Shown here piece by piece: positions 10,145 to 36,542 of a DNA stretch of 37,677 bases. Every line of letters starts with the position of its first letter. Positions within the stretch are counted from its first letter, which is position 1. A program made the position numbers and the translations under genes. Origin of the DNA: a virus. Lineage: Duplodnaviria > Heunggongvirae > Uroviricota > Caudoviricetes. Where the stretch lies: the IMG/VR virus record IMGVR_UViG_2541047910_000002, one strand, 5' to 3'. A model generated the notes under the pieces. The model saw only the letters and a program-made list of their open reading frames with translations. It was not told the origin of the DNA and did not search any database.

Positions 10145-10711
10145 TCAGGGAGATTTATTGCTCTTATTTGCCGGAAATTTTCGATAAATGGTAGAAACGC
10201 CTACATCAAAAATCAGTGCAATACGCTGTCTTGATTCTCCGGCCTCGAGTAAACGTCCAATCTGTGCCCACTGTTCAGTGGTCAACTTAGGACGGCGTCC
10301 ACCTACTCTGCCTTTAGCACGAGCTGCAGCCAGCCCTGCCCGGGTACGTTCAACTATCAGTTCGCGTTCCATTTCAGCCAGGGCACCCATGACATGAAAA
10401 AAGAAACGGCCCATTGGGGTACTGGTATCAATACTGTCAGTCAGGCTTCGGAAATTCACACCACGCTGGCGCAACTCTTCTATCAGCGTAACAAGATGCC
10501 GCATACTGCGCCCCAACCTGTCCAGCTTCCAGACAACCAGCGTGTCTCCTGCCAATAGTGTCCTGAGCAGTTTTTTAAGCCCCGGTCTGTCGGACTTAGT
10601 GCCACTGATTTTGTCCTCAAAAATCCGCTCACATCCCGCGCAGTTCAGCGCATTACGTTGCAAATCGGTGTTCTGGTCATTTGTTGACACGCGTACATAG
10701 CCAATAAGCAT
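10145..10711 (-). CDS. serine DNA invertase (Gin/Pin/Hin family)
   Basis: MLIGYVRVSTNDQNTDLQRNAL... with catalytic Ser in YVRVS and C-terminal HTH; closely matches the Gin/Pin sequence from memory; start set at third codon with a GGAG SD 6 nt upstream. Confidence 0.9.
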   Translation of the reverse strand: MLIGYVRVSTNDQNTDLQRNALNCAGCERIFEDKISGTKSDRPGLKKLLRTLLAGDTLVVWKLDRLGRSMRHLVTLIEELRQRGVNFRSLTDSIDTSTPMGRFFFHVMGALAEMERELIVERTRAGLAAARAKGRVGGRRPKLTTEQWAQIGRLLEAGESRQRIALIFDVGVSTIYRKFPANKSNKSP

Positions 10712-10766
10712 GATCATCTCCCTGAATAAAAATAGGGGATGATGCCAGTTAGCCGTAATCGCTGCA

Positions 10767-10792
10767 TTTTCTTAAACGTTGGTTTGGGAGAA
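10767..10792. repeat. invertase crossover site (gix/hix-like), invertase-proximal
   Basis: 26-bp imperfect palindrome ttttcttaaacg-tt-ggtttgggagaa; inner 14 bp (10779-10792) is the exact inverted repeat of 12670-12683. Confidence 0.7.
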
Positions 10793-11152
10793 GCGGCAAA
10801 ACGGGATGTGGGAACAGGGGAAAATCAGATACCGGATATGGCTTCTTTTGCCAGTGGTGATGGATGGATGAAATTACCCAACGGTAAAATCCTGCAATAT
10901 GGTCGAGGTGCGGTTACGCCGACATTATCGACGCAAACAATGAGAATTACATTCAGCATCCCTTTTCCTAAAAAAGTGGACTGCGCCATGCTTACTCATT
11001 CTGGTGATGGTGGTGCACCTTTAGGTGCTGGACGGGGATTCGTGATGACCGCAGAAGGTCCAACATTAACCGGTTTTAATTCCGCTTACAGAACTGCATC
11101 AACCAGTTCCACAGTATCGATGAATTACAGTTGGTGGGCTGTTGGTGAGTAA
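10781..11152 (+). CDS. alternative tail-fibre C-terminal segment (Sv'-like), silent in this orientation
   Basis: open frame begins at the crossover site with GLGE, the same residues that follow the crossover in H; no independent start; in frame with H constant part after inversion. Confidence 0.6.
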   Translation, partial: GLGEAAKRDVGTGENQIPDMASFASGDGWMKLPNGKILQYGRGAVTPTLSTQTMRITFSIPFPKKVDCAMLTHSGDGGAPLGAGRGFVMTAEGPTLTGFNSAYRTASTSSTVSMNYSWWAVGE

Positions 11153-11172
11153 TTTTATTAAGGGTGATTTAT

Positions 11173-11616
11173 ATGAACGAATATGTTTATAGCGCAAGGC
11201 ATAATGCTTTTTTCCCTGTGGATATGATTGATAAATATAAATCAGAGGGATGGGATTTATCAGATGCTAAAGAGGTGAATCAAAATATTATCAGTGAATT
11301 TATGGCTGAACCGCCACAAGGAAAAATCCGTATTGCCGGAGGTGATGGGCAGCCCGCGTGGGCAGATATTCCTCCACCCACGCATGAAGAACTTATTGAA
11401 ATTACTGAATCAGAAAGACAGCTACTAATTAACCAGGCCAACGAATACATGAACAGTAAGCAATGGCCCGGCAAAGCCGCTATTGGTCGTCTGAAAGGTG
11501 ATGAACTGGCGCAATATAATTTGTGGCTGGATTATCTGGACGCACTGGAGCTGATCGATACTTCCGGTGCGCCAGATATTGAATGGCCTACGCCTCCGGC
11601 AGTTCAGGCCAGATGA
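11173..11616 (+). CDS. tail-fibre assembly chaperone (U'-like), alternative orientation
   Basis: about 147 aa downstream of Sv'; C-terminal ...DYLDALELIDTSGAPDIEWP resembles the C-terminus of the converging 11588-12190 gene (...AVLDYIDAVTATDTSTAPDVIWPELP). Confidence 0.7.
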   Translation: MNEYVYSARHNAFFPVDMIDKYKSEGWDLSDAKEVNQNIISEFMAEPPQGKIRIAGGDGQPAWADIPPPTHEELIEITESERQLLINQANEYMNSKQWPGKAAIGRLKGDELAQYNLWLDYLDALELIDTSGAPDIEWPTPPAVQAR

Positions 11617-22173: not shown

Positions 22174-23940
22174 ATGAACACCACACTGACACCCGCAGAT
22201 CTCGATCCCCGTCGGCAGGCCATGCTGCTGTACTTTCAGGGATACCGCGTAGCCCGCATAGCTGAAATGCTGGGCGAGAAAGTTGCAACCGTTCACAGCT
22301 GGAAAAAACGCGACAAGTGGGGTGACTATGGGCCGCTGGATCAGATGCAGCTCACCACCGCCGCACGCTACTGCCAGCTCATCATGAAGGAGCACAAAGA
22401 AGGGAAAGATTTCAAAGAGATTGACCTGCTGGCGCGCCAGTCGGAGCGCCACGCGCGGATCGGCAAGTTTAACAATGGCGGCAACGAAGCCGACTTAAAC
22501 CCAAACGTCGCCAACCGCAACAAAGGCCCACGCCGTCAGCCGGAAAAGAATGTTTTCACCGATGAGCAGATTGAGAAGCTGGAAGAAATCTTCCATTCCT
22601 CCATGTTCAACTACCAGCGCCACTGGTGGGAAGCCGGAAAAACCAACCGCATCCGCAATCTGCTGAAGTCACGCCAGATCGGCGCGACCTTTTACTTTGC
22701 CCGTGAAGCCCTGATTGACGCCCTGCTTACCGGGCGTAACCAGATTTTCCTTTCCGCCAGTAAGGCACAGGCCCACGTCTTTAAGCAGTACATCATCGAC
22801 TTCGCCAAAGAAGTGGAGGTGGAGCTGAAAGGCGATCCGATGGTGCTTCCTAACGGGGCCACGCTTTACTTCCTCGGCACCAATGCCCGCACGGCCCAGA
22901 GTTACCACGGCAACCTGTATCTGGATGAATATTTCTGGATACCGAAATTCCAGGAGCTGCGCAAAGTGGCTTCCGGTATGGCTATTCACAAAAAATGGCG
23001 ACAAACCTATTTTTCCACGCCATCCAGCCTGACACACAGTGCTTATCCGTTCTGGTCCGGTGCGCTGTTCAACCGAGGGCGCAACAAAGCCGATAAGGTG
23101 GACATCGACCTGTCCCACCGCAATCTGGCCCCCGGCCTGCTGTGCGCAGACGGGCAGTACCGCCAGATAGTCACCGTGGAAGATGCGGTGCGCGGCGGCT
23201 GTAACCTGTTCGACCTTGACCAGTTGCGCATGGAGTACAGCCCGGACGAATACCAGAACCTGCTGATGTGCGAGTTTGTGGACGATCTCGCGTCCGTGTT
23301 CCCGCTCAGCGAGCTGCAGGCGTGCATGGTGGACAGCTGGGAAGTCTGGACCGACTTTCATGCACTGGCGCTGCGCCCGTTTGGCTGGCGCGAGGTGTGG
23401 ATCGGTTATGACCCGGCAAAAGGTACGCAGAACGGCGACAGCGCCGGGTGCGTGGTGGTGGCACCGCCAGCCGTGCCGGGCGGTAAGTTCCGCATTCTTG
23501 AGCGTCACCAGTGGCGCGGGATGGACTTCCGCGCCCAGGCTGACGCCATCAAAAAACTGACCGAACAGTACAACGTGACATACATCGGCATCGACTCAAC
23601 TGGCGTCGGCCACGGGGTTTACGAGAACGTGAAAGCATTCTTTCCTGCCGTCCGGGAGTTTGTCTACAACCCCAACGTTAAAAACGCCCTGGTACTCAAG
23701 GCCTACGACATTATCAGCCACCGCCGTCTGGAGTTTGACGCCGGACACACCGACATAGCGCAGTCCTTTATGGCAATCCGTCGCTCCACCACCGCCAGTG
23801 GCAACCGCCCGACCTATGAAGCCAGCCGCAGCGAAGAAGCCAGCCATGCGGATCTGGCCTGGGCAACGATGCACGCACTGTTTAACGAACCGCTGCAAGG
23901 CGAGTCCGCCAATACCAGCAATATTGTGGAGATTTTTTGA
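22174..23940 (+). CDS. P: terminase ATPase (large) subunit P
   Basis: 588 aa; recognised as P2 gpP-like. Confidence 0.9.
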   Translation: MNTTLTPADLDPRRQAMLLYFQGYRVARIAEMLGEKVATVHSWKKRDKWGDYGPLDQMQLTTAARYCQLIMKEHKEGKDFKEIDLLARQSERHARIGKFNNGGNEADLNPNVANRNKGPRRQPEKNVFTDEQIEKLEEIFHSSMFNYQRHWWEAGKTNRIRNLLKSRQIGATFYFAREALIDALLTGRNQIFLSASKAQAHVFKQYIIDFAKEVEVELKGDPMVLPNGATLYFLGTNARTAQSYHGNLYLDEYFWIPKFQELRKVASGMAIHKKWRQTYFSTPSSLTHSAYPFWSGALFNRGRNKADKVDIDLSHRNLAPGLLCADGQYRQIVTVEDAVRGGCNLFDLDQLRMEYSPDEYQNLLMCEFVDDLASVFPLSELQACMVDSWEVWTDFHALALRPFGWREVWIGYDPAKGTQNGDSAGCVVVAPPAVPGGKFRILERHQWRGMDFRAQADAIKKLTEQYNVTYIGIDSTGVGHGVYENVKAFFPAVREFVYNPNVKNALVLKAYDIISHRRLEFDAGHTDIAQSFMAIRRSTTASGNRPTYEASRSEEASHADLAWATMHALFNEPLQGESANTSNIVEIF

Positions 23941-24965
23941 TGGGAAAGAGTAAGAAGAACCGCGCTGCGGCGACGAAACAGATCCAGCTTAAAAGTCAAA
24001 CTACAGCCGAAGCATTCAGCTTCGGCGATCCCGTTCCTGTTCTGGACCGCCGAGAACTGCTGGACTATGTGGAATGCGTACAGACAGATCGCTGGTATGA
24101 GCCGCCAGTAAGCTTTGACGGACTGGCGCGCACCTTCCGCGCCGCCGTGCATCACAGTTCACCAATTGCGGTGAAATGCAACATTCTGACCAGTACCTAC
24201 ATCCCTCACCCGCTGCTCAGCCAGCAGGCTTTTTCACGTTTTGTGCAGGACTATCTGGTATTTGGTAACGCCTACCTGGAGAAACGCACGAACCGCTTCG
24301 GTGAAGTTATCGCCCTTGAGCCTGCTCTGGCAAAATACACCCGACGCGGGTTAGACCTGGATACCTACTGGTTTGTGCAATACGGTATGACAACCCAGCC
24401 GTATCAGTTCACGAAAGGCAGCATTTTTCATCTGATGGAACCGGACATTAACCAGGAGATCTACGGCCTGCCCGGCTATCTTTCTGCCATTCCGTCCGCC
24501 CTGCTCAATGAGTCCGCCACGCTGTTCCGCCGCAAGTATTACATTAACGGTAGTCATGCAGGCTTCATCATGTACATGACCGATGCTGCGCAGAACCAGG
24601 AGGACGTGAACAACCTCCGCAATGCAATGAAAAGTGCCAAAGGTCCGGGTAACTTCCGCAACCTGTTTATGTACTCGCCTAACGGCAAAAAGGACGGGCT
24701 TCAGATTATCCCGTTGTCAGAGGTGGCGGCGAAGGATGAGTTTTTGAATATCAAGAACGTGAGCCGCGATGACATGATGGCTGCGCACCGCGTGCCGCCG
24801 CAAATGATGGGGATTATGCCTAATAATGTTGGAGGGTTTGGGGATGTGGAGAAGGCCGCAAATGTGTTTGTGCGCAATGAACTTTTGCCATTACAGAAAC
24901 GCATGGAGGAGTTAAACCATTGGCTGGGTGAGAAAGTTATTGCATTTTCATCCTATTGTTTATGA
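23937..24965 (+). CDS. Q: portal protein Q
   Basis: 342 aa, overlaps P stop; recognised as P2 gpQ-like. Confidence 0.9.
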   Translation: MMGKSKKNRAAATKQIQLKSQTTAEAFSFGDPVPVLDRRELLDYVECVQTDRWYEPPVSFDGLARTFRAAVHHSSPIAVKCNILTSTYIPHPLLSQQAFSRFVQDYLVFGNAYLEKRTNRFGEVIALEPALAKYTRRGLDLDTYWFVQYGMTTQPYQFTKGSIFHLMEPDINQEIYGLPGYLSAIPSALLNESATLFRRKYYINGSHAGFIMYMTDAAQNQEDVNNLRNAMKSAKGPGNFRNLFMYSPNGKKDGLQIIPLSEVAAKDEFLNIKNVSRDDMMAAHRVPPQMMGIMPNNVGGFGDVEKAANVFVRNELLPLQKRMEELNHWLGEKVIAFSSYCL

Positions 24966-24975
24966 GATATAAATT

Positions 24976-25000
24976 GGTGGCCTTAATTATATAGCCACCA
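24976..25000. terminator. bidirectional hairpin between convergent Q and the TIR gene
   Basis: tggtggc (24976-24982) / gccacca (24994-25000) stem followed by tattgctttttatttt on the plus strand. Confidence 0.5.
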
Positions 25001-25009
25001 TATTGCTTT

Positions 25010-25822
25010 TTATTTTACTCTAAAGGCATCATCGGCTTTATGTGGTATAGGAGCATAACGCTCGGTACTTACTCGATGTAGCACCGCAAATATATTCAAA
25101 GGTGAACCATCCTTTAACCTAAGAGAAACATACATTGGCATCGTTGGTGTTAACCCCCGATTTAGGCCAACAGTGGCACCACTTACTTTCATACCATTTT
25201 CTAAAGATGCATTTTCAATAAACCCCTGAGTGAATGTGCTTTCTCCATTGACCATAACAACAACATCATCATGCTTAATTGTATTATCCATAATCATCAT
25301 AAAATCAGCAATTGGTTCTAAAAAATCCATTGCTGATAATTTCACTATCTTACCCCCATCACCATCCTTAATATCATAGGAGAGGTTTGAATACTTCTCA
25401 GGATTAGGAATATACGTATTTTGTTGATTAATGACATCTATAATTTGTCTTATTGCCACATCGATCCCATACGAATAAAGATCAATATATAGCGTTTGAG
25501 TAAGCAGAGCAGGCAAGGATATATTCTGGCAACGTATTGGTATAAATTTACACTTCCCGGACGATGCCTTAATTAAAGCATTTTGCCATTCCATTTTTAC
25601 CATGTTACTTGCCAAACTATTTTCTGTGACAAAAAAGAAAAAGAACGATACATTCTCCATTCCTAAATTCATCTTGTCAATAATACCCTCTCCGGGTTGG
25701 ATAGACCAAGAATCGTAGAATACGTTATCACGCCCATAAACATCTGCTAGTTTTTCCGCTATAACACTTACAAACCTTTTGTCACGGTGATTATGACTTA
25801 GAAAGATCATAGCATGCCCCAT
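25010..25822 (-). CDS. TIR-domain protein with an uncharacterised C-terminal domain (accessory gene)
   Basis: N-terminal about 130 aa shows TIR-like pattern (MIFLSHNHRDKRFV ... VTENSLASNMVKMEW with candidate catalytic Glu); C-terminal about 140 aa unassigned; A+T-rich; possible true start at 25810 (MIFLSH, GGGG SD). Confidence 0.6.
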   Translation of the reverse strand: MGHAMIFLSHNHRDKRFVSVIAEKLADVYGRDNVFYDSWSIQPGEGIIDKMNLGMENVSFFFFFVTENSLASNMVKMEWQNALIKASSGKCKFIPIRCQNISLPALLTQTLYIDLYSYGIDVAIRQIIDVINQQNTYIPNPEKYSNLSYDIKDGDGGKIVKLSAMDFLEPIADFMMIMDNTIKHDDVVVMVNGESTFTQGFIENASLENGMKVSGATVGLNRGLTPTMPMYVSLRLKDGSPLNIFAVLHRVSTERYAPIPHKADDAFRVK

Positions 25823-25891
25823 TAGAAATTAATGTGTAAGATCTGCGTAGAGAGTCACCGACAGTGTACCAATAATAATCTTCTGCGCGCA

Positions 25892-25910
25892 ATCGTATCC
25901 CCGCCACGCC
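25892..25910 (-). other. putative cos cohesive-end site
   Basis: minus strand reads GGCGTGGCGGGGATACGAT followed by TGCGCGC, resembling the P2/186 19-nt cohesive end as I recall it; lies between Q and A where cos is expected. Confidence 0.4.
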
Positions 25911-26401
25911 TGCCCGCTTTATGCAGTGGTTTTCATGCACCTGCATGACATGAGTAAAAGCTCGCCAGTTCTAGCAGGTCTCTGCAAAAACGATCCTCAA
26001 TCGATCATGCGATTTCATGCAGCATAGTCATGCACAGCCAAGGGAAGCGTAAATCCGTATCTGAATGACCGCTGAAAAGCGAATCATACGGGTTTACAAA
26101 GATGAAAGTCCGCTGTGAGTGAAAAGCGGACATTAACTCCTTGCTTTTTGGCACTGAAACAGAGCGAAGCAGCATGTAAGCTGTTACGGATGCGCAGCGG
26201 TGACAACAGCAACTTCAATTAAGGAAATGCTCTTGGTTTTCGGGGAGACTTTTCGAGCGATATATGATAATGAAGACACTAAAAAACTGAACAGAAACGT
26301 CTAGCTCAATATGACTTCTGTTCAGGTATAAATGGTCTATTTATATATTCTCTCTTCAAATCCTTACTGAATACTCTCGAAGATGGCTAACGCCCCCTCT
26401 C

Positions 26402-27364
26402 TTAACCTTCATAGTTCATGCCGCCAAGATACGAAGGTATCATCATTAATGATTTAACCCTTTCTTTTTCTTTTTCGGTGAGATGACGACATGCAAATGG
26501 GTAAATATTGATCAAAAATGTCTTGAGTTCGTCAAATGCCTCATCTGAATATAGGGTCCCAGATCTTAACTCATTCATTATTGTCATGACCCATTTTATA
26601 AACACAGTTGGCATCATTACATCAGCTATATCTTCCCAGCCATCAATAAGGCCATTGTTTGTTTGTTTTCTAACATACTGCCGGAGTGCTTGGTCGCAGT
26701 TGCCTCGACACGTCCAAAAAATATGTTCATTATACTCTGGTTCTTTTTCGTAGTCGGTGCGGATTCTTTGCCATATAGTGATAATTCCCTTGTCGTCTTG
26801 AGACAGAAGCTCTTTCTTGCAAACTTTGCATTTTAAGCTAGGTTCATCGGAAAATATTCTTGCGGGTTTGGGGTTTTCTGTTTTCCACTCAGATAACGAC
26901 TTTGGGAAGTACCTTTCGGCAATTTCCAATCCTCTGGAAGAGTGTAAAAGTTCCCTCTCTATTTTCTCTTTATCGAAAACCTGAAATTCAATTCGTCCTT
27001 TCAACCCGTCAAGTATTCCAGACAGACCTGCACTAGCAAGAGTTGAATAGAACCCGATAAATCCTTGGCAGTTATTCGCTATTACTCGATCAGTAATATT
27101 TGCATCATCTCCTGGATTAACTGAATTTCCACTATGAGCTTTATGCTTACAGCTTACCAACCAACGGATAATTGTTTCCCCGCCGACACCAGTCCTTTTT
27201 TCTTCGGCTATAATATCAACCCCACCGTCAGCCCCTCTATCTGGGTCAGATATAATTTTATATCCCAGAAAAGCTAAGAAGTCGCGAGAAAAAAGTTCAA
27301 ATGTGTCTTGCAGCCCTGTTGCTTTATGAGCCTCTGGTATTTCTTTGAAGTCTAATACTGGCAT
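26402..27364 (-). CDS. Mrr-like PD-(D/E)xK nuclease-domain protein with Cys-rich C-terminal domain (accessory gene)
   Basis: N-terminal FLGYKIISDPDRGADGGVDIIAEEK ... WLVSCKHK resembles the Mrr_cat restriction-endonuclease core; C-terminal half has CKVCKK and CRGNCDQ Cys pairs; A+T-rich. Confidence 0.5.
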   Translation of the reverse strand: MPVLDFKEIPEAHKATGLQDTFELFSRDFLAFLGYKIISDPDRGADGGVDIIAEEKRTGVGGETIIRWLVSCKHKAHSGNSVNPGDDANITDRVIANNCQGFIGFYSTLASAGLSGILDGLKGRIEFQVFDKEKIERELLHSSRGLEIAERYFPKSLSEWKTENPKPARIFSDEPSLKCKVCKKELLSQDDKGIITIWQRIRTDYEKEPEYNEHIFWTCRGNCDQALRQYVRKQTNNGLIDGWEDIADVMMPTVFIKWVMTIMNELRSGTLYSDEAFDELKTFLINIYPFACRHLTEKEKERVKSLMMIPSYLGGMNYEG

Positions 27365-27646
27365 TTTTATGGGGTCCTTAAGTTGTTAATGCTTATTGGG
27401 TGGAAAGAACCGTATTTAAACACGGAGTTTCTGCCTCTGTAAATTTAATATGTAGAACACTCATCACTTTTTATAACTGACAATAGGATATTTAGACGTC
27501 TGTTTTTGGCACAAAGCAGACAAAAAACTGAAGGCCCACTGTGAACGAGAAACGGACTATGATACTAACAAGAGAGCATCACTGTTAATATTTGAACAAT
27601 TAATGCTCAGCTATTTATCTATTTTTACAATTAGAAAGGACTTGTA

Positions 27647-28057
27647 ATGGTTACGGTTGATGAATTAAAGATGAAATATCCGGACGCGAATGCCTGGCAA
27701 ATGGGCGACAGCCCTGAACTGGCTAACGAGCTTGCAGCGCTTATCAAAAAAGGAATTAAAACGGCCTCCTGCGGCTCTTATGCCTCTTACCAGAAGGAAG
27801 AGTTTGCCCCAAGGATTGGGAGCTATAACATCATCCTTAACGGCCAAGATGTACCGGTATGCGTGACCCGGCTGGTGTCGATGCGACTGGTGCGTTTTTG
27901 TGATGTTACTGCCGAGTTCGCTCGCAAGGAAGGTGAAGGCGATTTGAGTCTTGAATATTGGCAGAGAGAGCATCAACGATTTTTTACATGTGAAGGTTAC
28001 TTTTCTGATGATATGGAGCTGATTATGGAAGAGTTTGAAGTTGTTGATGTTTTGTAA
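27647..28057 (+). CDS. ASCH-domain protein
   Basis: 136 aa; pattern ...ELIKKGIKTASCG...FTCEGYFSD... typical of ASCH/PUA-like fold; AAAGGA SD 8 nt upstream. Confidence 0.6.
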   Translation: MVTVDELKMKYPDANAWQMGDSPELANELAALIKKGIKTASCGSYASYQKEEFAPRIGSYNIILNGQDVPVCVTRLVSMRLVRFCDVTAEFARKEGEGDLSLEYWQREHQRFFTCEGYFSDDMELIMEEFEVVDVL

Positions 28058-28209
28058 TCCAACAACGTTTATGCATGTCAGATTAGAATAACTGAGTACC
28101 GTTTTATCACGTGAAATTTGTATTAATGCCCGCCTCTGGCACAAAGCGAACGAGCACTTATCAAAATGCCCACCCACCTTACGCCTCGTTTCACTCGTTG
28201 CCAAAACTA

Positions 28210-28239
28210 GCCCCCATCAGAATGAATCCTCTTGGGGGC
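28210..28239. terminator. hairpin between convergent ASCH gene and tum/dinI-like gene
   Basis: gccccca (28210-28216) / tgggggc (28233-28239) stem; the minus strand has TAGTTTTGG after the stem. Confidence 0.45.
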
Positions 28240-28247
28240 AACGTTTC

Positions 28248-28481
28248 TTAATGCAGCCAGCTGTCGTCTTCCCACACCTTCTGCATAATTTTCATCACTT
28301 GTTTTCTTTCTTCGTCCAGTTGCAATCCGGTAAGTTCCACACCGTTAGAGCTACCTTTGCGGATACGAATTACCGTTTTGGGATACAGGGGGCGCAGATT
28401 GCGGTAAAGCTCGGATTCAAGGGCGTCCAGGGTAGACTGGCTAATCTTCTGCTCTTTATCGATCATTATTTCAATGCGCAT
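28248..28481 (-). CDS. DinI-family protein (Tum-like antirepressor C-terminal module)
   Basis: 77 aa, MRIEIMIDKEQKISQSTLDALESELYRNLRPLYP...VWEDDSWLH resembles E. coli DinI; GAGGTGA SD overlapping the upstream gene stop. Confidence 0.75.
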   Translation of the reverse strand: MRIEIMIDKEQKISQSTLDALESELYRNLRPLYPKTVIRIRKGSSNGVELTGLQLDEERKQVMKIMQKVWEDDSWLH

Positions 28482-28492
28482 AAAAAGTCACC

Positions 28493-28681
28493 TCAACTGA
28501 TGACATCCATTGAGCGGTTGTATTCGTGGGTTCTGATTTTTGCCATGAGTTCATCTGTTAGTTCAGAAACCCACTGCAAAGCCAGCCCCTTCTCTTCATC
28601 ACTACACTCACTAGTCGCTACAAGCTTAAGAAAAAAATCAATGCGCTGGAGCTTCAAAGACTCCAAAAAATAGTCCTGCAT
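28493..28681 (-). CDS. small protein, first gene of the LexA-controlled operon (possible Tum N-terminal part)
   Basis: 62 aa with AGGAGG SD; translationally coupled to the DinI-like gene; LexA box about 45 bp upstream. Confidence 0.55.
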   Translation of the reverse strand: MQDYFLESLKLQRIDFFLKLVATSECSDEEKGLALQWVSELTDELMAKIRTHEYNRSMDVIS

Positions 28682-28722
28682 CTTTCCTCCTATGACACCA
28701 AAGCAATACTGTATACATAACC

Positions 28723-28741
28723 ACTGTTTATATTTACAGTA
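28723..28741. promoter_or_regulatory. LexA (SOS) box
   Basis: aCTGTttatatttACAGta fits the CTGT-N8-ACAG consensus; a second partial box (tactgtatacataaccactg) overlaps at 28708-28727. Confidence 0.7.
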
Positions 28742-28833
28742 TATAATAATCTTACTGATGTAAAACGTTTTTTTACGTTCATCAGCCTGATATGCCTGGT
28801 ATTATTAAGAGCACGAATTGTTAACCCGCGTAA

Positions 28834-31248
28834 TTAATACAGGTTCCGCCACTTATCATCTTCCTGCAAACGCTGGTTCCGATAGAAGATACGCAGGCCT
28901 GCTCCTGACGGAATACTGCCGCCGCGAAGGAGTAAATCGACCTCTTTCTCGCTACCATCAAATCCTCTGGACTTCAGCTCATAGACGAGCTGCAGTCGCT
29001 GATGGTCTGTAATTCGCTGTTTGTAGTCTTTACGCCGTTTCGGTTTAACCAGGCGTAACCTTGCAGCCAGTTCCCGGCGCTCTTTTTTGCTCATACTGTG
29101 CAGGTAATCGTGCAACTCCTTGTCATCCATGCGGGTAATGTCCGTTCTGATGTCCCCATCAGCTGATTTATCTTTCTCCTGTTGGTTCAAATTTTCAGCA
29201 AGGGGACAGTTATTGCCACGAGTCCAAGGGGCGCAAGCGCCCTGGTCGGCTGCCGCCTCCTGAACGTCAACGGCTTTACGAACCATTTTCCACTTCACTG
29301 CATGGGTGCAGATCTTGCCCTCTGCAATGGGTGACCAGATGCCATAAATACGAATGCCGTGATCGCCATAGGCGGTCGGCTCTTCGTTGATTTCATAAGC
29401 GGTTCTGATGAGGTGATATTTACGGGGAACCAGTACGCCGCCCTGCTTCATGATGTAGGTGGCAAAACAACCAGCATCAGCAGCAGCCAGAATGGCATCA
29501 AGACGCGGGTTATCCAGTACCGGCGCACCTGCTTTTTTGTCACCCTGTTGCCTTGCCGCCTGACCAGCCAGCAAGCGAAGTTCACGGTAAGCCTGACGCC
29601 CCGGAATACCAAAGAAGCGGAATTGCTGAACACGATGCAGAGACGCCCAGGCATTCACGTATTCAGCGTTATCACGCAGAGATTTACCCGTTTCCTTGCT
29701 GATCTCGCCAGCCAGACCACGACCGTCAATGTTCTTACTGATATATTTCGCGATGTAGCTTGTCGGCGTTCCTTTGCGCGGGTTAATCAACTCAGACTTA
29801 AAGCGCGGCCCAGTGTTATTGCCCAGCTCCTCGCGGTCTTCACGGATGGCAAACTTACGCAGTAATGCAGTGATGGCACGGCGGTCTTTTTTGCGCATGA
29901 AACACAACAGGTGCCAGTGAACTGTGCCATCATGATGCGGCTCAGCCACCCGCACGCCATACCAGCGCAACCCGGCTTTGTGCATCGCCTTACGAAATGC
30001 AGCAAACATGCCGACCAGATAATCGCTGCTTTGTCTTACCGTCGCGTTTGTCCAGGTCGGGTTTGGTCTGCCGTTATTTAGCGTGGAATGGAAACGCGAC
30101 GGACAGGTGATAGTGTAGAAAACGGCGCAGTCACCGCGCATTTCCGCAATAAGCTCCAGACCTTTAACACAGGCCATCATCTCATTGCGGCGATGCGCAG
30201 GGTTGCTGCTGCTGGCGTTTACCACCTCCTCCATGTCCAGCGTGTCGCCGTCTTCGTTCACCAGTTCATGAGAACGGAAAAACTCCAGCGACTTACGGCG
30301 CTGCTCACGTTTATGCATCACGGCTTCATAGCTGACATAAGGAGATGCTTTTTTGCTGACCAGGCAAACAGCGCGCAACTGCTCTTCCCGCCATTCGCAA
30401 CGCATCTTCCATAATTTCCGATACCACCAGTCGGCGCACAACATACGCGCCAGCGAACCCGGAATGAGTTCATAGGGCACGGGTTTACGGCGGTTTCTTT
30501 TCCGACGGAGTTGCTCAAACGCAGGTGGGATGACATCCAGACGCAGGGTTTCCGCTGCCACCTTTTCCCATGTCTTGCGGATTTCTTCTGGCTTAACGTC
30601 ATCGGTGGCATACAAATCACCACAAGCTGCATCAAGGCACATACTCATATGCGCAGCTACCAGGGTGGACAGGCGTTTCACCTGATCCTGACTCATTTCA
30701 GGCAGGATCAGCAGGCCGTCCAGCCCTTCATGGCTTGCCATAAAGCGAAAAGATGCAGATAGCTGACTGTCGCGTACATGCTCCAGTCGTTCCAGACATG
30801 GCTTAATCGTCTCACGTAAATAGCGGGAATAAGCCTTTGGCCTGCCCAGGCTGCTGAAGTATTCAATACGTTGCATCAGCGGCTTGCTGATATGGGAAGG
30901 CAGGGCGTTGACGTCCGCCAGAATGACCATGTCTGAATTAAAACGCTGCTGCTCATGCGCCAGCTTTGCCCGGCTAATGAGCTTATCCTGCTCCATTTCG
31001 CGCTGGACAGGATCACGTGATTCATTAAAGAAATAACGCTCCCAGACCTGATCACTCAGTGCCTCGCGGCGCAACTGTTCCTGCTCGTTATCGGCAGCGT
31101 ACAGAGTGATCAGGTTTGAAAGCGTAGAAACCGGCGCAACTTCCGCCGGGTCCAGATAAGGGTTAATGGCCTTTTTCGGGCTGTTCCATGAGAATGCTGC
31201 GGCAGCCTCGTTAAAGCCGCAGCAGTTGTTCATATCGGCATGACTCAT
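28834..31248 (-). CDS. A: rolling-circle replication initiator A
   Basis: 804 aa with HxH (VHWHLL) and YIAKYISK active-site tyrosine motifs typical of P2 gpA; ATG overlaps the dam stop. Confidence 0.9.
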
Positions 31249-32102
31249 GCACGTACTCCGTACACGGCAGAACTATCCACGCCACGCGAATAATCAAATC
31301 CCATCCAGCAGCGCGGCCCGGAAACAGCAATGATTTCTGTTGCTGATTTACCCTCGCCAGTTGCCACACCGATGCTGCGTTTAACCTTGATATAGTGGTG
31401 AGTAAAATTGCGATACAGCGAACGGATCAGGGATGTGTCACTGTTAGAAACAATGACCGGATGTCCTTCTGATGACCGATGTTCAAGAATGGATGCCAGG
31501 TGATACTGGTCATCTTCAGTGAAACCATCAGTGTGATAGCCGGAAAACGTACCGTCATATGGCGGATCGCAATACACCACATCTCCCGCCTTCAACATCG
31601 CCAGCGTTTCATCAAAGCTGGCGCAGATAAACGTTGCTCGCTGGGCTTTTTCTGCAAATGTGCGAAGTTCTTTTTCAGGGAAATACGGATTTTTATAATT
31701 ACCGTAGGGAATGTTGAAATGCCCGCTCTTGTTATAGCGACATAAACCACGGTAACCGTGACGATTGAGATACAGGAAATATACCGCTTTCATGAAATCA
31801 GTAATTTCAGTTGAGCAGTTAAACTCCTGCCTTATGTTGTAATAAGCCACCTCCCTGTTTGCGATCTCAAATAAAACTCTGGCGCGAGATATAAACGATT
31901 CACAATCAGCGGCAACCTTTTTATAGAGGTTGATTAAATCAGGATTAATATCCGCAACCAGATAGCTGGGATAATCCGTTTCCATCATCACAGCACAGGA
32001 ACCCGCGAAAGGTTCAACCAGTCGCGGGCCAGCAGGAAGGTATTTTTTCAGTTCTGGCATAATGGCGGTTTTATTTCCCGCCCATTTCAGGATAGTGCTC
32101 AT
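31245..32102 (-). CDS. dam: DNA adenine methyltransferase (Dam-like)
   Basis: LKWAGNK...LVEPFAGS (AdoMet motif) and CDPPY catalytic motif; start placed at MSTILKWAG, overlapping the upstream stop. Confidence 0.85.
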
Positions 32103-32326
32103 ACAGCACCTCCGTTGTAATGTTTGCCTTTCAGTTCTGCGATTTCCTGACAGGTAATGCAAAGCTGCACTCCCGGAATGGCGCGGCGTCGTGCTGGCGG
32201 AATTGGCGCTTCACATTCAATGCAAAGTACGCGTGACACGCCCGGTGATTTGGCACGGGCTGCACGGATATGGCGCTGGCGTTCTTCTTCAACGCGCTGC
32301 TGTACGAGATCCATTGCATCAGCCAT
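32099..32326 (-). CDS. TraR/DksA-type C4 zinc-finger protein
   Basis: 75 aa with CIECEAPIP...CITCQ (CxxC-N17-CxxC). Confidence 0.7.
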   Translation of the reverse strand: MADAMDLVQQRVEEERQRHIRAARAKSPGVSRVLCIECEAPIPPARRRAIPGVQLCITCQEIAELKGKHYNGGAV

Positions 32327-34248: not shown

Positions 34249-34845
34249 ATGTCAACATCAAAGTACCCAAGTGAGATCAAAATAAATCCCAATAAAGGTG
34301 GTAAGGCTGCGATTGAGCGATTAGTCGAAGCCTATGGCTTTACGACACGACAGGCTTTAGCTGATCACTTGGAAGTATCAAAAAGCACACTAGCGAACAG
34401 GTATTTGCGGGATACATTTCCTGCTGACTGGATAATCCAATGTGCTCTTGAAACAGGAACCTCCCTCAAATGGTTAACTACCGGACAAGGCCTTAAGCAA
34501 AGCTCGCTGACAGCAGCTACAGAAGAGCTTGTTAAGTTTCGCCTTGCCGCAGGCAAAATGATTGAAGACGGTTCATATGTCTTCGATTCATCATTTCTTC
34601 CTGCAAACCTTTCATCACCAATTGTTGTTCAGGATGGACTCGTCACATACATTTGTGATCAAAAATTTTCTGAAGTACTTGATGGAAACTGGTTAATCAA
34701 TATCGACGGAACCTATTCCATTCGAAAAATCACAAGGCTTCCTAAAGGAATGATTAAAATTACAACAGCAGAGAATAGCTTTGAATGTGCATTTTCTGAT
34801 ATTGAAGTGGTTGCTTGTATAAGAAGTACAATAGTCTCGAATTAA
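34249..34845 (+). CDS. cI: CI-like immunity repressor
   Basis: 198 aa, N-terminal HTH (TTRQALADHLEVSKSTLANRY), divergent from apl/cII. Confidence 0.75.
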   Translation: MSTSKYPSEIKINPNKGGKAAIERLVEAYGFTTRQALADHLEVSKSTLANRYLRDTFPADWIIQCALETGTSLKWLTTGQGLKQSSLTAATEELVKFRLAAGKMIEDGSYVFDSSFLPANLSSPIVVQDGLVTYICDQKFSEVLDGNWLINIDGTYSIRKITRLPKGMIKITTAENSFECAFSDIEVVACIRSTIVSN

Positions 34846-34865: not shown

Positions 34866-36542
34866 ATGAATTCATTTGCCATCGTTATACTCTTATTAGC
34901 ATTTCTCGCCCCTGTTCTAGCTGTAATATTATTTAAACAAAGTAAAAAACACAAAGCGGCTATAGATAACCTGACAGCTAACAACATAGCCCTTTCTAAC
35001 CAACTGATTGAAAATCAAGAAAAACTAGCACAGACCGTACGAGAATTATCAGAGCTTGAAGGGCGAGCAGCACCATTGTGGCAATACGAAGAATTGCACA
35101 GCGCAGTAATGGATGCAGAGAATAAGATAAAAAATGCGGACTCAATAGCCAAGCAAAAAATAGATGAAGCCCAAATTAAGGCGGCTAAAACAGTAAACGA
35201 AGCAAATTATCAAGCTCAGATGACAATAAGCAACGCTAATAGCGAAGCTATAGCAATCACCAAAGACGCTCGCGATGCACGCCTGAAAGCCAAAGAACGT
35301 CTTGATAATGCTAATAATAAAGCAAATGAGCTAATCTCAAATGCTAATGACAATGCAGTAAAAATTATTTCTGATGCAGAAGAAAGAGCAAAGGAGATTG
35401 CTGGTTCAGCATATGAAGCTAAAGAGTTTGCAGAAAAATATGAAGCAGTTGCAAAATCAATGAAAAATAAAATTGAAGGTTATGGTGATGAATGGATCAT
35501 CCCTAACCGTAGTGTACTTGATGAGCTGGCAGAAAATTATGAATTTACAGATGCAGGCAAGGAATTACAAAAAGCCAGAGAGTTAACCAAATCATTAATA
35601 AAAACTAATAAAGCTGCTTCGTGTGATTATGTTGAGCAAAACAGGCGTAATACTGCCATAAACTTTGTTTTGGATGCCTTCAATGGAAGAGTTGACAGTA
35701 TTTTATCAAAAGTCAAACACAACAATTTTGGAAAACTTTCCCAAGAAATAAAAGATGCATTTCAACTAGTAAATTACAATGGCTCTGCCTTTAGGTCCGC
35801 AAAAATAAGTGACATCTATCTTCAGGCAAGACTCAACGAGCTAAAATGGGGTGTAGCAGTTAATGAAATTATGCTCGAAGAAAAAGAAGAGCAAAGAAGG
35901 ATTAAAGAACAGCTTCGTGAAGAGGAAAGAGCTCGTAGAGAATATGAAAAAGCGATAAAAGAAGCTGAAAAAGAAGAAAAAGCTATTCAGCAAGCTATAA
36001 ATAAAGCAACGAAAGAACTTATGCTTGCAAATGAAGAACAACGCTTAGCTTTAGAGCAAAAAATAGCTGAACTACAGTTAAAATATGAAGAAGCTGAAGC
36101 TAAAAATCAACGAGCTATTTCTATGGCTCAACAAACCAGATCAGGCCACGTCTATATCATTAGTAATATTGGTTCATTTGGCGAAGATGTATATAAAATT
36201 GGAATGACACGCCGCCTTGAACCACTTGATCGTGTTCGTGAACTCGGAGATGCTAGTGTTCCTTTTTCGTTCGATGTTCATGCGATGATTTATAGTGATG
36301 ATGCACCATCATTAGAAAACCATCTGCATAAAGTTTTCAACGAAAAGCAGGTCAATAAAATTAACTCACGAAAAGAGTTTTTTAACGTAAATTTAAAAGA
36401 AATCAAATCAGTTATTGAAGACATGAACATCAACGCCCACTGGACAATGTTTGCAGAGGCGAAAGAATATAGAGAGTCTCTATCTATTGAGCAGGAGCGC
36501 AAAGCAGCCACTTCCGCCAACGATGAACTACATGTTGCTTAG
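34866..36542 (+). CDS. membrane-anchored coiled-coil protein with C-terminal T5orf172/GIY-YIG-like domain (DUF4041-like architecture), accessory gene
   Basis: N-terminal TM helix, long Ala/Lys/Glu-rich coiled-coil, C-terminal GHVYIISN...YKIGMTRR...VPFSFDVHAMIYSDDAPSLENHLHKVF...RKEFFNV; AAAGGA SD; markedly A+T-rich; inserted between cI and int. Confidence 0.6.
   Translation: MNSFAIVILLLAFLAPVLAVILFKQSKKHKAAIDNLTANNIALSNQLIENQEKLAQTVRELSELEGRAAPLWQYEELHSAVMDAENKIKNADSIAKQKIDEAQIKAAKTVNEANYQAQMTISNANSEAIAITKDARDARLKAKERLDNANNKANELISNANDNAVKIISDAEERAKEIAGSAYEAKEFAEKYEAVAKSMKNKIEGYGDEWIIPNRSVLDELAENYEFTDAGKELQKARELTKSLIKTNKAASCDYVEQNRRNTAINFVLDAFNGRVDSILSKVKHNNFGKLSQEIKDAFQLVNYNGSAFRSAKISDIYLQARLNELKWGVAVNEIMLEEKEEQRRIKEQLREEERARREYEKAIKEAEKEEKAIQQAINKATKELMLANEEQRLALEQKIAELQLKYEEAEAKNQRAISMAQQTRSGHVYIISNIGSFGEDVYKIGMTRRLEPLDRVRELGDASVPFSFDVHAMIYSDDAPSLENHLHKVFNEKQVNKINSRKEFFNVNLKEIKSVIEDMNINAHWTMFAEAKEYRESLSIEQERKAATSANDELHVA

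Follow-up and report, generated by a model that had tools for sequence, protein, structure and literature searches.

A Predicted Mrr-Type Nuclease with a Cysteine-Rich Tail as Candidate Single-Gene Anti-Phage Cargo of a P2-Like Prophage

Nuclease Gene and Its Product

The DNA studied here is the Caudoviricetes record IMGVR_UViG_2541047910_000002 of IMG/VR, a stretch of 37,677 nucleotides (nt) whose whole length is called the window below. Based on its recognisable backbone genes, the element is a P2/186-like prophage, and between its portal gene Q and replication gene A it carries a gene for a 320-amino-acid (aa) protein with an Mrr-type nuclease domain at the N-terminus (the head) and a cysteine-rich domain at the C-terminus (the tail). 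We see about an even chance that this protein is an autonomous one-protein anti-phage nuclease, carried as prophage cargo, built of two modules and controlled by its tail. This reading draws on the conservation of fold and motifs, the autonomy of the single gene, its distribution over hotspots and mobile elements, and the modularity of head and tail.

The open reading frame (ORF) is intact according to the ORF list and a check of codon positions, and all motifs quoted in a preliminary description made from the sequence alone were found in the product: GADGGVDIIAEEK at residues 44–56, WLVSCKHK at 68–75, CKVCKK at 179–184 and CRGNCDQ at 219–225. The features of the gene are as follows.

26402..27364, minus strand: complete single-gene nuclease ORF, 320 aa plus stop, ATG start
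26870..27364, minus strand: head, Mrr-type PD-(D/E)xK nuclease domain with helical linker, residues 1–165
27296..27298, minus strand: E23, helix-1 glutamate, invariant; aligns with E172 of EcoKMrr (hhalign, MAFFT)
27215..27217, minus strand: D50, predicted catalytic Asp of GxDGGxD, invariant in all alignments; aligns with D203 of EcoKMrr (hhalign)
27146..27154, minus strand: S71-C72-K73, the (D/E/Q)xK position of strand beta-3, here SxK; aligns with Q217-A-K219 of EcoKMrr (MAFFT)
27107..27109, minus strand: D86, acidic residue on the helix after beta-3, invariant in the alignment of relatives; candidate replacement carboxylate
26405..26869, minus strand: tail, putative Cys4 zinc-site and helical domain of no known family, residues 166–320
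26819..26830, minus strand: C179-x2-C182, putative zinc knuckle, invariant in fused and stand-alone forms
26696..26710, minus strand: C219-x3-C223 at a helix N-terminus, putative second half of a treble-clef-like site
26609..26638, minus strand: W243-x4-D248-x3-P252, the tail signature GWEDIxDxxxP; W, D and P invariant in fused and stand-alone forms
27559..27588, minus strand: promoter-like site TTAACA-18-TATCAT about 195 nt upstream of the start, 10 of 12 matches in a consensus scan
27374-27378, minus strand: Shine–Dalgarno-like AAGGA, read from the sequence

Both expression signals are weak evidence; promoter-like sites of this kind are no commoner upstream of the nuclease gene than in shuffled sequences. 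The protein is 100% identical to P0001, and the DNA is 99.9–100% identical to intact gene copies in E. coli 2547 and MB06022. In strain 2547 (99.9% identity), the 320-aa product is annotated as WP_016248371.

Mrr-Type Head

The N-terminal region had been likened to the Mrr endonuclease core, and both profile and fold comparisons bear this out. The Pfam profile Mrr_cat (PF04471) matched residues 20–82 above threshold (E = 4.7e-6, 27.1 bits, gathering cut-off 21), the match spanning profile positions 7–61 of 115 only. Relatives reach 41.6 bits over nearly the whole model, among them a 28%-identical protein from a Photobacterium plasmid that matches positions 6–111 of 115 (E = 1.6e-10). Since this relative covers nearly the whole profile, the entire head can be assigned to Mrr_cat by transitivity. 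Sequence searches against PDB sequences with the whole protein and with family profiles gave nothing useful.

An AlphaFold2 model of the full protein was built from a 31-sequence alignment, with a mean predicted local distance difference test score (pLDDT) of 84. The head core in this model has the order alpha-beta-beta-beta-alpha-beta (helix 21–33, strands 36–73, helices 84–96, strand 101–106). In a Foldseek search of the PDB, the best fold matches were the nuclease domains of MspJI (4f0q, E = 3e-5) and AspBHI (4oc8, E = 1e-4), followed by the RPB5 N-domain and, weakly, Avs4, and all of them align to the head alone. Alignment with EcoKMrr points to the same family.

Conservation of the catalytic residues was confirmed in part. 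D50 and K73 are conserved, but the middle residue of the motif is an invariant serine and not D, E or Q. Residues E23, D46, D50, K73 and H74 are invariant in the 31-member alignment, in relatives of 28–43% identity and in the sister family described below; S71 and C72 are also invariant in the 31-sequence alignment, in relatives of 28–40% identity and in the sister family, and the middle position is Ser71 throughout the family of the window protein, its distant relatives and the sister family. The hhalign alignment with EcoKMrr spans E23 to D50 and ends before the xK strand, so that the equivalence of S71 and K73 is based on MAFFT, on how far the Pfam match reaches and on the register of the hairpin in the model. 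The same triplet also aligns with QCK of a Vibrio nuclease-SMC protein.

Cysteine-Rich Tail

The two cysteine pairs, proposed earlier as possible zinc ligands, form an invariant four-Cys site of the zinc-binding kind, as predicted from alignments of fused and stand-alone proteins; C219 and C223 are invariant in the fused family and nearly so in the stand-alone forms. The tail modelled alone folds independently (pLDDT 84, predicted template modelling score 0.75). It starts with the CxxC knuckle, continues with a beta-hairpin (194–218), the CxxxC motif entering a helix (222–235) and a strand (239–245), and ends with a four-helix region. In the model, the Cys4 arrangement is a treble clef, TRASH-like, with a predicted zinc site. 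The TRASH domain has the same CxxC...CxxxC ligand pattern with a spacer of 19–22 residues. The spacing in the tail is 36 residues, and matches to the Pfam TRASH model (Arc_trans_TRASH) were weak, below threshold and limited to 4 of the 15 stand-alone proteins (best E = 0.009). Pfam, NCBIfam, PHROGs and PADLOC contain no family that fits the tail, and the PDB and BFVD contain no fold relative of it. Family and fold searches recognised in the tail no known modified-DNA reader (SRA, EVE/ASCH/YTH, winged helix or SBD).

A search of 1.84 billion cluster representatives with the tail profile returned 405 proteins at E <= 1e-3. Most of them have the head–tail architecture of about 315 aa, and many are complete proteins of 135–155 aa with a Met start that consist of the tail alone, keeping the Cys4 site and the GW-D-x4-D-x3-P signature. 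Because it occurs in stand-alone proteins, the tail is an evolutionarily independent domain. The stand-alone genes have varied surroundings: one lies in a glycosyltransferase/capsule locus of a very abundant organism, another adjoins an HD/dGTPase-like gene, and a third belongs to an integrase island. The tails are acidic almost without exception, with a median isoelectric point (pI) of 5.45 in fused and 5.3 in stand-alone forms, which speaks modestly against a generic nucleic-acid-binding role.

It should be noted that one stand-alone tail of 141 aa (P0282) was present on 621 metagenome contigs. In the loci examined (L011–L014), its gene lies between polysaccharide deacetylase and sugar transferase genes in a capsule-type cluster, an odd place for a relative of a defence domain.

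Exchange of Heads and Tails

The preliminary description had suggested an effector fused to a sensor or specificity domain, and this architecture gains support from a sister family with the same head on another C-terminal domain. Over residues 1–160, the 300-aa protein WP_164057033 from a Rhizobium plasmid shares 54% identity with the window protein, and beyond them the two diverge fully. More than 100 full-length clusters of this sister family were found among the best 120 matches, from Rhizobiales, Pectobacterium, Pseudomonas, Candidatus Obscuribacter and others. The common head segment, about 55% identical between the two families up to W160, contains the invariant N-terminal LDFKEIP, WLVSCKH and GFIxFYST and runs to the linker RYxPxSxxxW. 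Beyond it, the sister tails match the PADLOC model of PD-T4-6 at positions 409–553 of 564 in all 11 members sampled (best E = 1e-24), and the window protein has no match to this model.

PD-T4-6 is a single-gene system that was validated by functional selection in E. coli (Vassallo et al. 2022); in it, an N-terminal Ser/Thr kinase is the effector that carries this tail (PMC9519451, PMC11514479). Judged from these similarities, the PD-T4-6 tail seems to serve either a kinase or an Mrr-type head, and the Mrr-type head seems to serve either the PD-T4-6 tail or the zinc tail. Such exchange of heads and tails is what one would expect if one-protein immune systems combine effector modules with sensor modules. 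Further relatives of the head match models of defence candidates, namely PDC-S73, PDC-M58A and the Argonaute-associated REase-TIR.

In the sister proteins of about 300 aa, the match to the PD-T4-6 model begins within the shared linker, at residue 151. From this comparison, the RYxPxSxxxW helix seems to be part of the junction at which tails are swapped. A tblastn search of the phage and plasmid collections for PD-T4-6 sequence, with a sister-family tail as query, returned only the Rhizobium gene itself.

Distribution and Autonomy of the Family

The homologues form 1200 clusters (90% identity) at E <= 1e-3. The best 120 of them are full-length proteins of about 320 aa with 59–100% identity to the window protein. 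They come from Aeromonas, Providencia, Acinetobacter, Vibrio, Pseudomonas, Methylococcales, Cycloclasticus and Rhodobacterales, as well as from Desulfuromonadales, Nitrospirota and Thermodesulfovibrionales, and the family is spread over Gamma-, Alpha- and Deltaproteobacteria-like lineages and Nitrospirota. The genes were found in the following contexts.

Q–A hotspot of P2-like prophages: E. coli, Aeromonas
Z/fun slot: E. coli, Providencia
Between gpS and gpV of another P2-like phage: a 93%-identical lone copy in the opposite orientation
Z region of P2-EC67: its lone ORF, annotated as a putative lysogenic conversion protein
Acinetobacter prophage: at the cargo end
A. baumannii island: beside a DUF4062 gene
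V. cholerae chromosome-2 superintegron: a 65%-identical homologue in the gene array
Acinetobacter plasmid p3SAAs470 (4.9 kb, MOBQ): the main cargo
Small islands: Pseudomonas, Methylovulum

The family therefore occupies at least four different insertion sites in P2-like phages, plus an integron and a small plasmid. No conserved neighbour was present among the eight contexts compared, and no methyltransferase was adjacent in the contexts examined, including the integron array and the 4.9-kb plasmid. Flanking proteins of about 200–220 aa in several loci were considered as a conserved partner and rejected, being mutually unrelated. A search for flanking inverted or direct repeats like those annotated around ORF1 of P2-EC67 gave none of note. 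On p3SAAs470, the nuclease homologue is followed by a convergent gene (L021, 3716-4168) for a 150-aa protein with only weak, membrane-protein-like matches.

In E. coli P2-like prophages, the A-side block of ASCH and nuclease genes is constant, and the Q-side cargo varies between a TIR protein (as in the window), retron Ec67 and PDC-M03A/B, a pair of HipA-like and HIRAN proteins. The same TIR gene occurs in E. coli P2-like prophages that have no nuclease gene, paired there with a divergent gene for a DUF4145 protein. Since the A-side block stays constant while the Q-side cargo varies, and since the TIR gene is found elsewhere without the nuclease, the nuclease is a self-contained single-gene module and not part of a TIR or ASCH system. 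The arrangement of TIR and nuclease genes exactly as in the window was found in one of 5426 E. coli genomes, and the window TIR gene, which lacks a DUF4145 partner, may be an orphan from a two-gene system. In every E. coli P2 context seen, the ASCH gene goes with the nuclease gene, and it is absent from all other contexts. Overall, the hotspot neighbours of the family include retron Ec67, the TIR protein, PDC-M03A/B and DUF4062. According to Table S3 of Rousset et al., the old/tin locus of P2 itself also has a small DUF3850/ASCH gene.

An example of the exchange on the Q side is the near-identical P2-like phage of the IMG/VR record UViG 3300014614_000024 (L030, 7626-9277), in which genes for HipA_C-like and HIRAN proteins replace the TIR gene. 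This pair matches the PADLOC candidates PDC-M03A (E = 1e-121) and PDC-M03B (E = 3e-93).

The gene is intact in 2 of the 23 complete E. coli genomes that carry it. At least three independent disruptions were found, two different frameshifts and an IS2 insertion, and a possible cause of such frequent disruption in E. coli is a cost of carriage. In E. coli 2013C-3181 (NZ_CP027312.1, 3123867-3124825) and about 18 other genomes of Shiga toxin-producing E. coli (STEC), a 99.2%-identical copy lies on a non-P2 island, adjoins an integrase pseudogene and IS66, and has a net deletion of 4 nt. The annotated product of these STEC copies (244 aa) lacks the catalytic motif entirely, yet it is named ‘restriction endonuclease’.

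Position in the Prophage and the Q–A Interval

The nuclease gene had been placed on the A side of cos, in the slot where P2 carries old/tin. It does lie between Q and A, on the A side of a cos-like element, and comparison of E. coli P2-like prophages confirmed that the Q–A interval is a variable cargo slot with nuclease and ASCH genes on the A side. From Q to A, the order is TIR_2, a 107-bp non-coding element, the nuclease, ASCH, DinI and a 62-aa PHROG-698 protein. The backbone and the contents of the interval are as follows.

22174-23940: terminase P, prophage backbone
23937-24965: portal gene Q, prophage backbone
25010-25822, minus strand: TIR_2 protein, 270 aa (E = 1e-22), its C-terminal 150 aa without a family
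25884-25990: 107-bp non-coding cos-like element, 82–91% identical in 93 P2-like phage records
27647-28057, plus strand: ASCH-domain protein, 136 aa (E = 1e-22), divergent from the nuclease gene across a 282-bp spacer
28248-28481, minus strand: DinI, in the Q–A interval
Last in the Q–A order: 62-aa PHROG-698 protein
28834-31248: replication gene A, prophage backbone
31245-32162: Dam-type methylase, prophage backbone, 3.9 kb from the nuclease gene
34249-34845: CI repressor
From 36625: integrase
Also in the prophage backbone: sheath, tube and tape-measure genes

The GC content of the nuclease gene is 39.9% against 50.9% for the whole window, and that of the whole Q–A interval (24966-28833) is 40.5%; the low value of the interval fits the expectation for imported cargo.

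The 107-bp element is unannotated in all but two of the listed phage records. It contains the cos-like sequence GGCGTGGCGGGGA and, on the minus strand, GGCGTGGCGGGGATACGAT, which resembles the 186/P2 cohesive end; a 186-like cos variant was spotted by eye at about 25893-25911. The sequence GGCGAGGCGGGGAAAGCAC, taken as P2 cos, gave no match at three or fewer mismatches. Based on this resemblance and on the conservation in 93 phage records rather than on mapped ends, the element is probably the cos region. It also marks the exact left limit of homology with prophages bearing other Q-side cargo, and the end of homology at this point means that cargo on either side of cos is exchanged independently. 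It is therefore reasonable to assign the nuclease gene to the old/tin slot of P2, with the probable cos lying toward Q.

Two further cargo positions were noted in the window. Between the CI repressor and the integrase, a 558-aa protein with DUF4041 and T5orf172/MUG113 domains (34866-36542, plus strand) matches PD-Lambda-1 in PADLOC (E = 3e-120), which makes it a second defence gene, of a validated type, in a third cargo slot. The Z/fun position (10145-11616) contains a Hin/Cin-type invertase (Resolvase and HTH_7, E = 1e-52), together with an alternative tail-fibre C-terminus (Gp53-like_C) and a second tail-fibre assembly gene. This content looks like an invertible host-range switch rather than defence cargo.

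Proposed Mode of Action and Alternative Explanations

We suggest the following scheme for the window protein. The head (residues 1–165) would be an Mrr-type DNase whose site is formed by E23, D50 and K73, with Ser71 in place of Gln or Glu, and a relocated carboxylate such as D86 probably completes it. The tail (residues 166–320), as a new zinc-binding Cys4 and helical domain, would decide when or on what the head cuts. In an uninfected lysogen, it would hold the head inactive, and an infection cue met by the tail would license DNA cleavage. This cue is more likely to be a phage protein or a small ligand than bulk DNA. A sensor of infection is favoured over a reader of modified bases because the tail is acidic and has no reader-like fold, and because the sister tail works with a kinase.

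It is also conceivable, and we offer this only as a tentative idea, that the tail is a new zinc-dependent sensor fold for a phage-made cue and the head a portable warhead mounted on different sensors, namely the zinc tail, the PD-T4-6 tail and possibly others such as PDC-S73. If so, the stand-alone tails of about 145 aa would be free-living versions of the sensor, acting as regulators or decoys. The pair of sister families would be a natural swap experiment that maps what each tail senses and would offer a mechanistic handle on the trigger of PD-T4-6.

Several points weigh against an autonomous anti-phage nuclease. The link to PD-T4-6 is indirect, running through the sister family and not through the window protein, which matches no PADLOC model of a validated system; the family is absent from PADLOC 2.0. 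An identity of 60–90% across phyla is unusually high for a defence gene, and the count of pseudogenes is dominated by one STEC lineage. A serine where the second metal ligand is expected could weaken or change catalysis. A tail with an acidic overall pI could still have a basic patch that binds DNA, and nucleic acids are frequent ligands of zinc treble clefs. In addition, stand-alone tails occur in places that do not look like defence, such as the capsule/glycosyltransferase locus.

The alternative that survives best, doubtful in our view and still deserving serious attention, is a type IV modification-dependent restriction endonuclease, in which the tail, as a novel reader domain, would direct the head to modified phage DNA and leave unmodified host DNA uncut. 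Membership in Mrr_cat, best fold matches to MspJI and AspBHI, and the lack of a cognate methyltransferase in any context examined are all in keeping with it, as is the format, one chain of about 320 aa in which a small second domain follows the nuclease. Zinc fingers are common nucleic-acid binders, and the four invariant Trp residues of the tail could form an aromatic pocket. The repeated inactivation in E. coli would also fit a conflict with newly acquired methyltransferases. However, the tail resembles none of the SRA, EVE/ASCH/YTH, winged-helix and SBD readers and is acidic in essentially all members, and in the sister family the head carries the PD-T4-6 tail, whose partner in PD-T4-6 itself is a kinase and not a DNA cutter. 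Moreover, Avs, Lamassu and NLR-like systems also employ Mrr-like heads, as effectors that become activated (bioRxiv 10.1101/2024.07.02.601686; PMC9122126).

It is unlikely that the protein has no role in defence, being instead a selfish or addictive nuclease, a factor of benefit to the phage (degradation of host DNA, help in induction) or a DNA-processing enzyme that rides along. The unusually high conservation across phyla and the frequent loss or disruption of the gene in E. coli agree with such a role, the P2-EC67 homologue is annotated only as a putative lysogenic conversion protein, and P2 hotspots also carry non-defence cargo (PMC9122126). The patchy distribution over at least four P2-like insertion sites, an integron and a small plasmid argues the other way, and so do the company of defence genes and the sister family, which shares its tail with a validated defence protein.

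The next alternative, a catalytically dead restriction-endonuclease (REase) fold that has Ser for a metal ligand and acts by binding, as a DNA or protein scaffold, is improbable. It would explain why S71 stands at the (D/E/Q) position in every member, and one relative weakly matches Pfam NA-iREase1, a family of inactive REases (E = 0.024). Nevertheless, more than 1000 homologues and the sister family all retain E23, D50 and K73, which is unexpected for a dead site. Cfr10I and NgoMIV are active enzymes with SxK sites in which the missing carboxylate is supplied by a Glu on the next helix, and by analogy the invariant D86 is a candidate for this carboxylate. Since E, D and K would not all have been kept on this scale in a dead site, we read the active site of the head as a variant with predicted activity rather than a dead one.

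A multi-gene system, either Thoeris-like with a TIR signal sensed by the tail or with ASCH (which belongs to the PUA-like reader superfamily) as reader of modified bases, is very improbable and largely refuted by distribution: the TIR_2 gene does lie 579 bp downstream on the same strand and ASCH does accompany the nuclease in E. coli P2 contexts, but TIR sits across the cos-like element, is swapped for retron Ec67 or PDC-M03A/B in otherwise identical loci and elsewhere goes with a DUF4145 protein and no nuclease, while ASCH is missing from the STEC island, the Aeromonas and Providencia prophages, the integron, the plasmid and all other contexts, and no homologous neighbour is shared between loci.

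An autonomous anti-phage nuclease with a controlling tail thus remains our preferred explanation. The recurrence of the family in both classic P2 hotspots makes it a direct and cheap candidate for phage challenge. The head swap with the PD-T4-6 tail ties it to a validated system and hints at where sensing resides, and the invariant SxK motif offers a natural test of how plastic the active sites of Mrr-type nucleases are.

Comparison with Known Systems

No meaningful family for the whole window protein was found in NCBIfam, PHROGs or PADLOC, and a literature search found no paper on WP_016248371, P2-EC67 or an Mrr-like zinc-tail defence protein. WP_016248371 does appear in Table S5A of the P2-hotspot catalogue of Rousset et al. 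2022; it occurs twice in the part of the text covered, which is below the 10-occurrence curation cut-off of that study. We found no report of this protein being tested for anti-phage activity. As no cognate methyltransferase is linked to the gene in the contexts examined, nothing there indicates a type II restriction–modification system.

With EcoKMrr and Mrr_cat, the window protein shares the catalytic fold, the FE of helix 1, GxDGGxD, the hhh-x-K strand and the G-h-h-h-T/S-S strand, and EcoKMrr likewise has no cognate methyltransferase. In contrast to EcoKMrr, the domain order is reversed, with the nuclease at the N-terminus and no winged-helix DNA-binding domain, Ser replaces Gln217, and the beta-hairpin leading from D to xK is seven residues longer. 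MspJI and AspBHI (4f0q, 4oc8) have a similar Mrr-like nuclease domain with D...QxK in place of the serine motif. They carry an N-terminal SRA-like reader of 5-methylcytosine, and the window protein has nothing like it; the TM-scores are about 0.3, which is low since only the head aligns. The SxK motif itself is known from Cfr10I, NgoMIV and Bse634I, in which a nearby helix provides the carboxylate, the candidate here being D86 or possibly D92. Those enzymes are type II, have cognate methylases and belong to a different subfamily.

Old and Tin of P2 are the natural comparison by position. They occupy the same slot between A and cos and are lysogen-expressed cargo that excludes other phages, but Old (an ATPase-TOPRIM nuclease) and the unrelated Tin show no sequence or fold relationship to the window protein. 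PD-T4-6 resembles it in having an effector head and a C-terminal domain in one polypeptide; both its kinase and its tail are absent here, and the relation is one step removed.

Single-protein defence nucleases that combine an effector with a sensor are already known, with Mrr-like heads in Avs, Lamassu and the integron-borne Epona. Epona is one of the Mrr_cat fusions, a single-gene, proven anti-phage system from Vibrio chromosomal integron cassettes (bioRxiv 10.1101/2024.07.02.601686). Its partner domain is holin-like with two transmembrane segments, whereas that of the window protein is a soluble, predicted zinc domain, and only Mrr_cat is common to both. What sets the present family apart from these systems is a tail fold that has no solved or predicted viral relative, together with its large size and unusual conservation.

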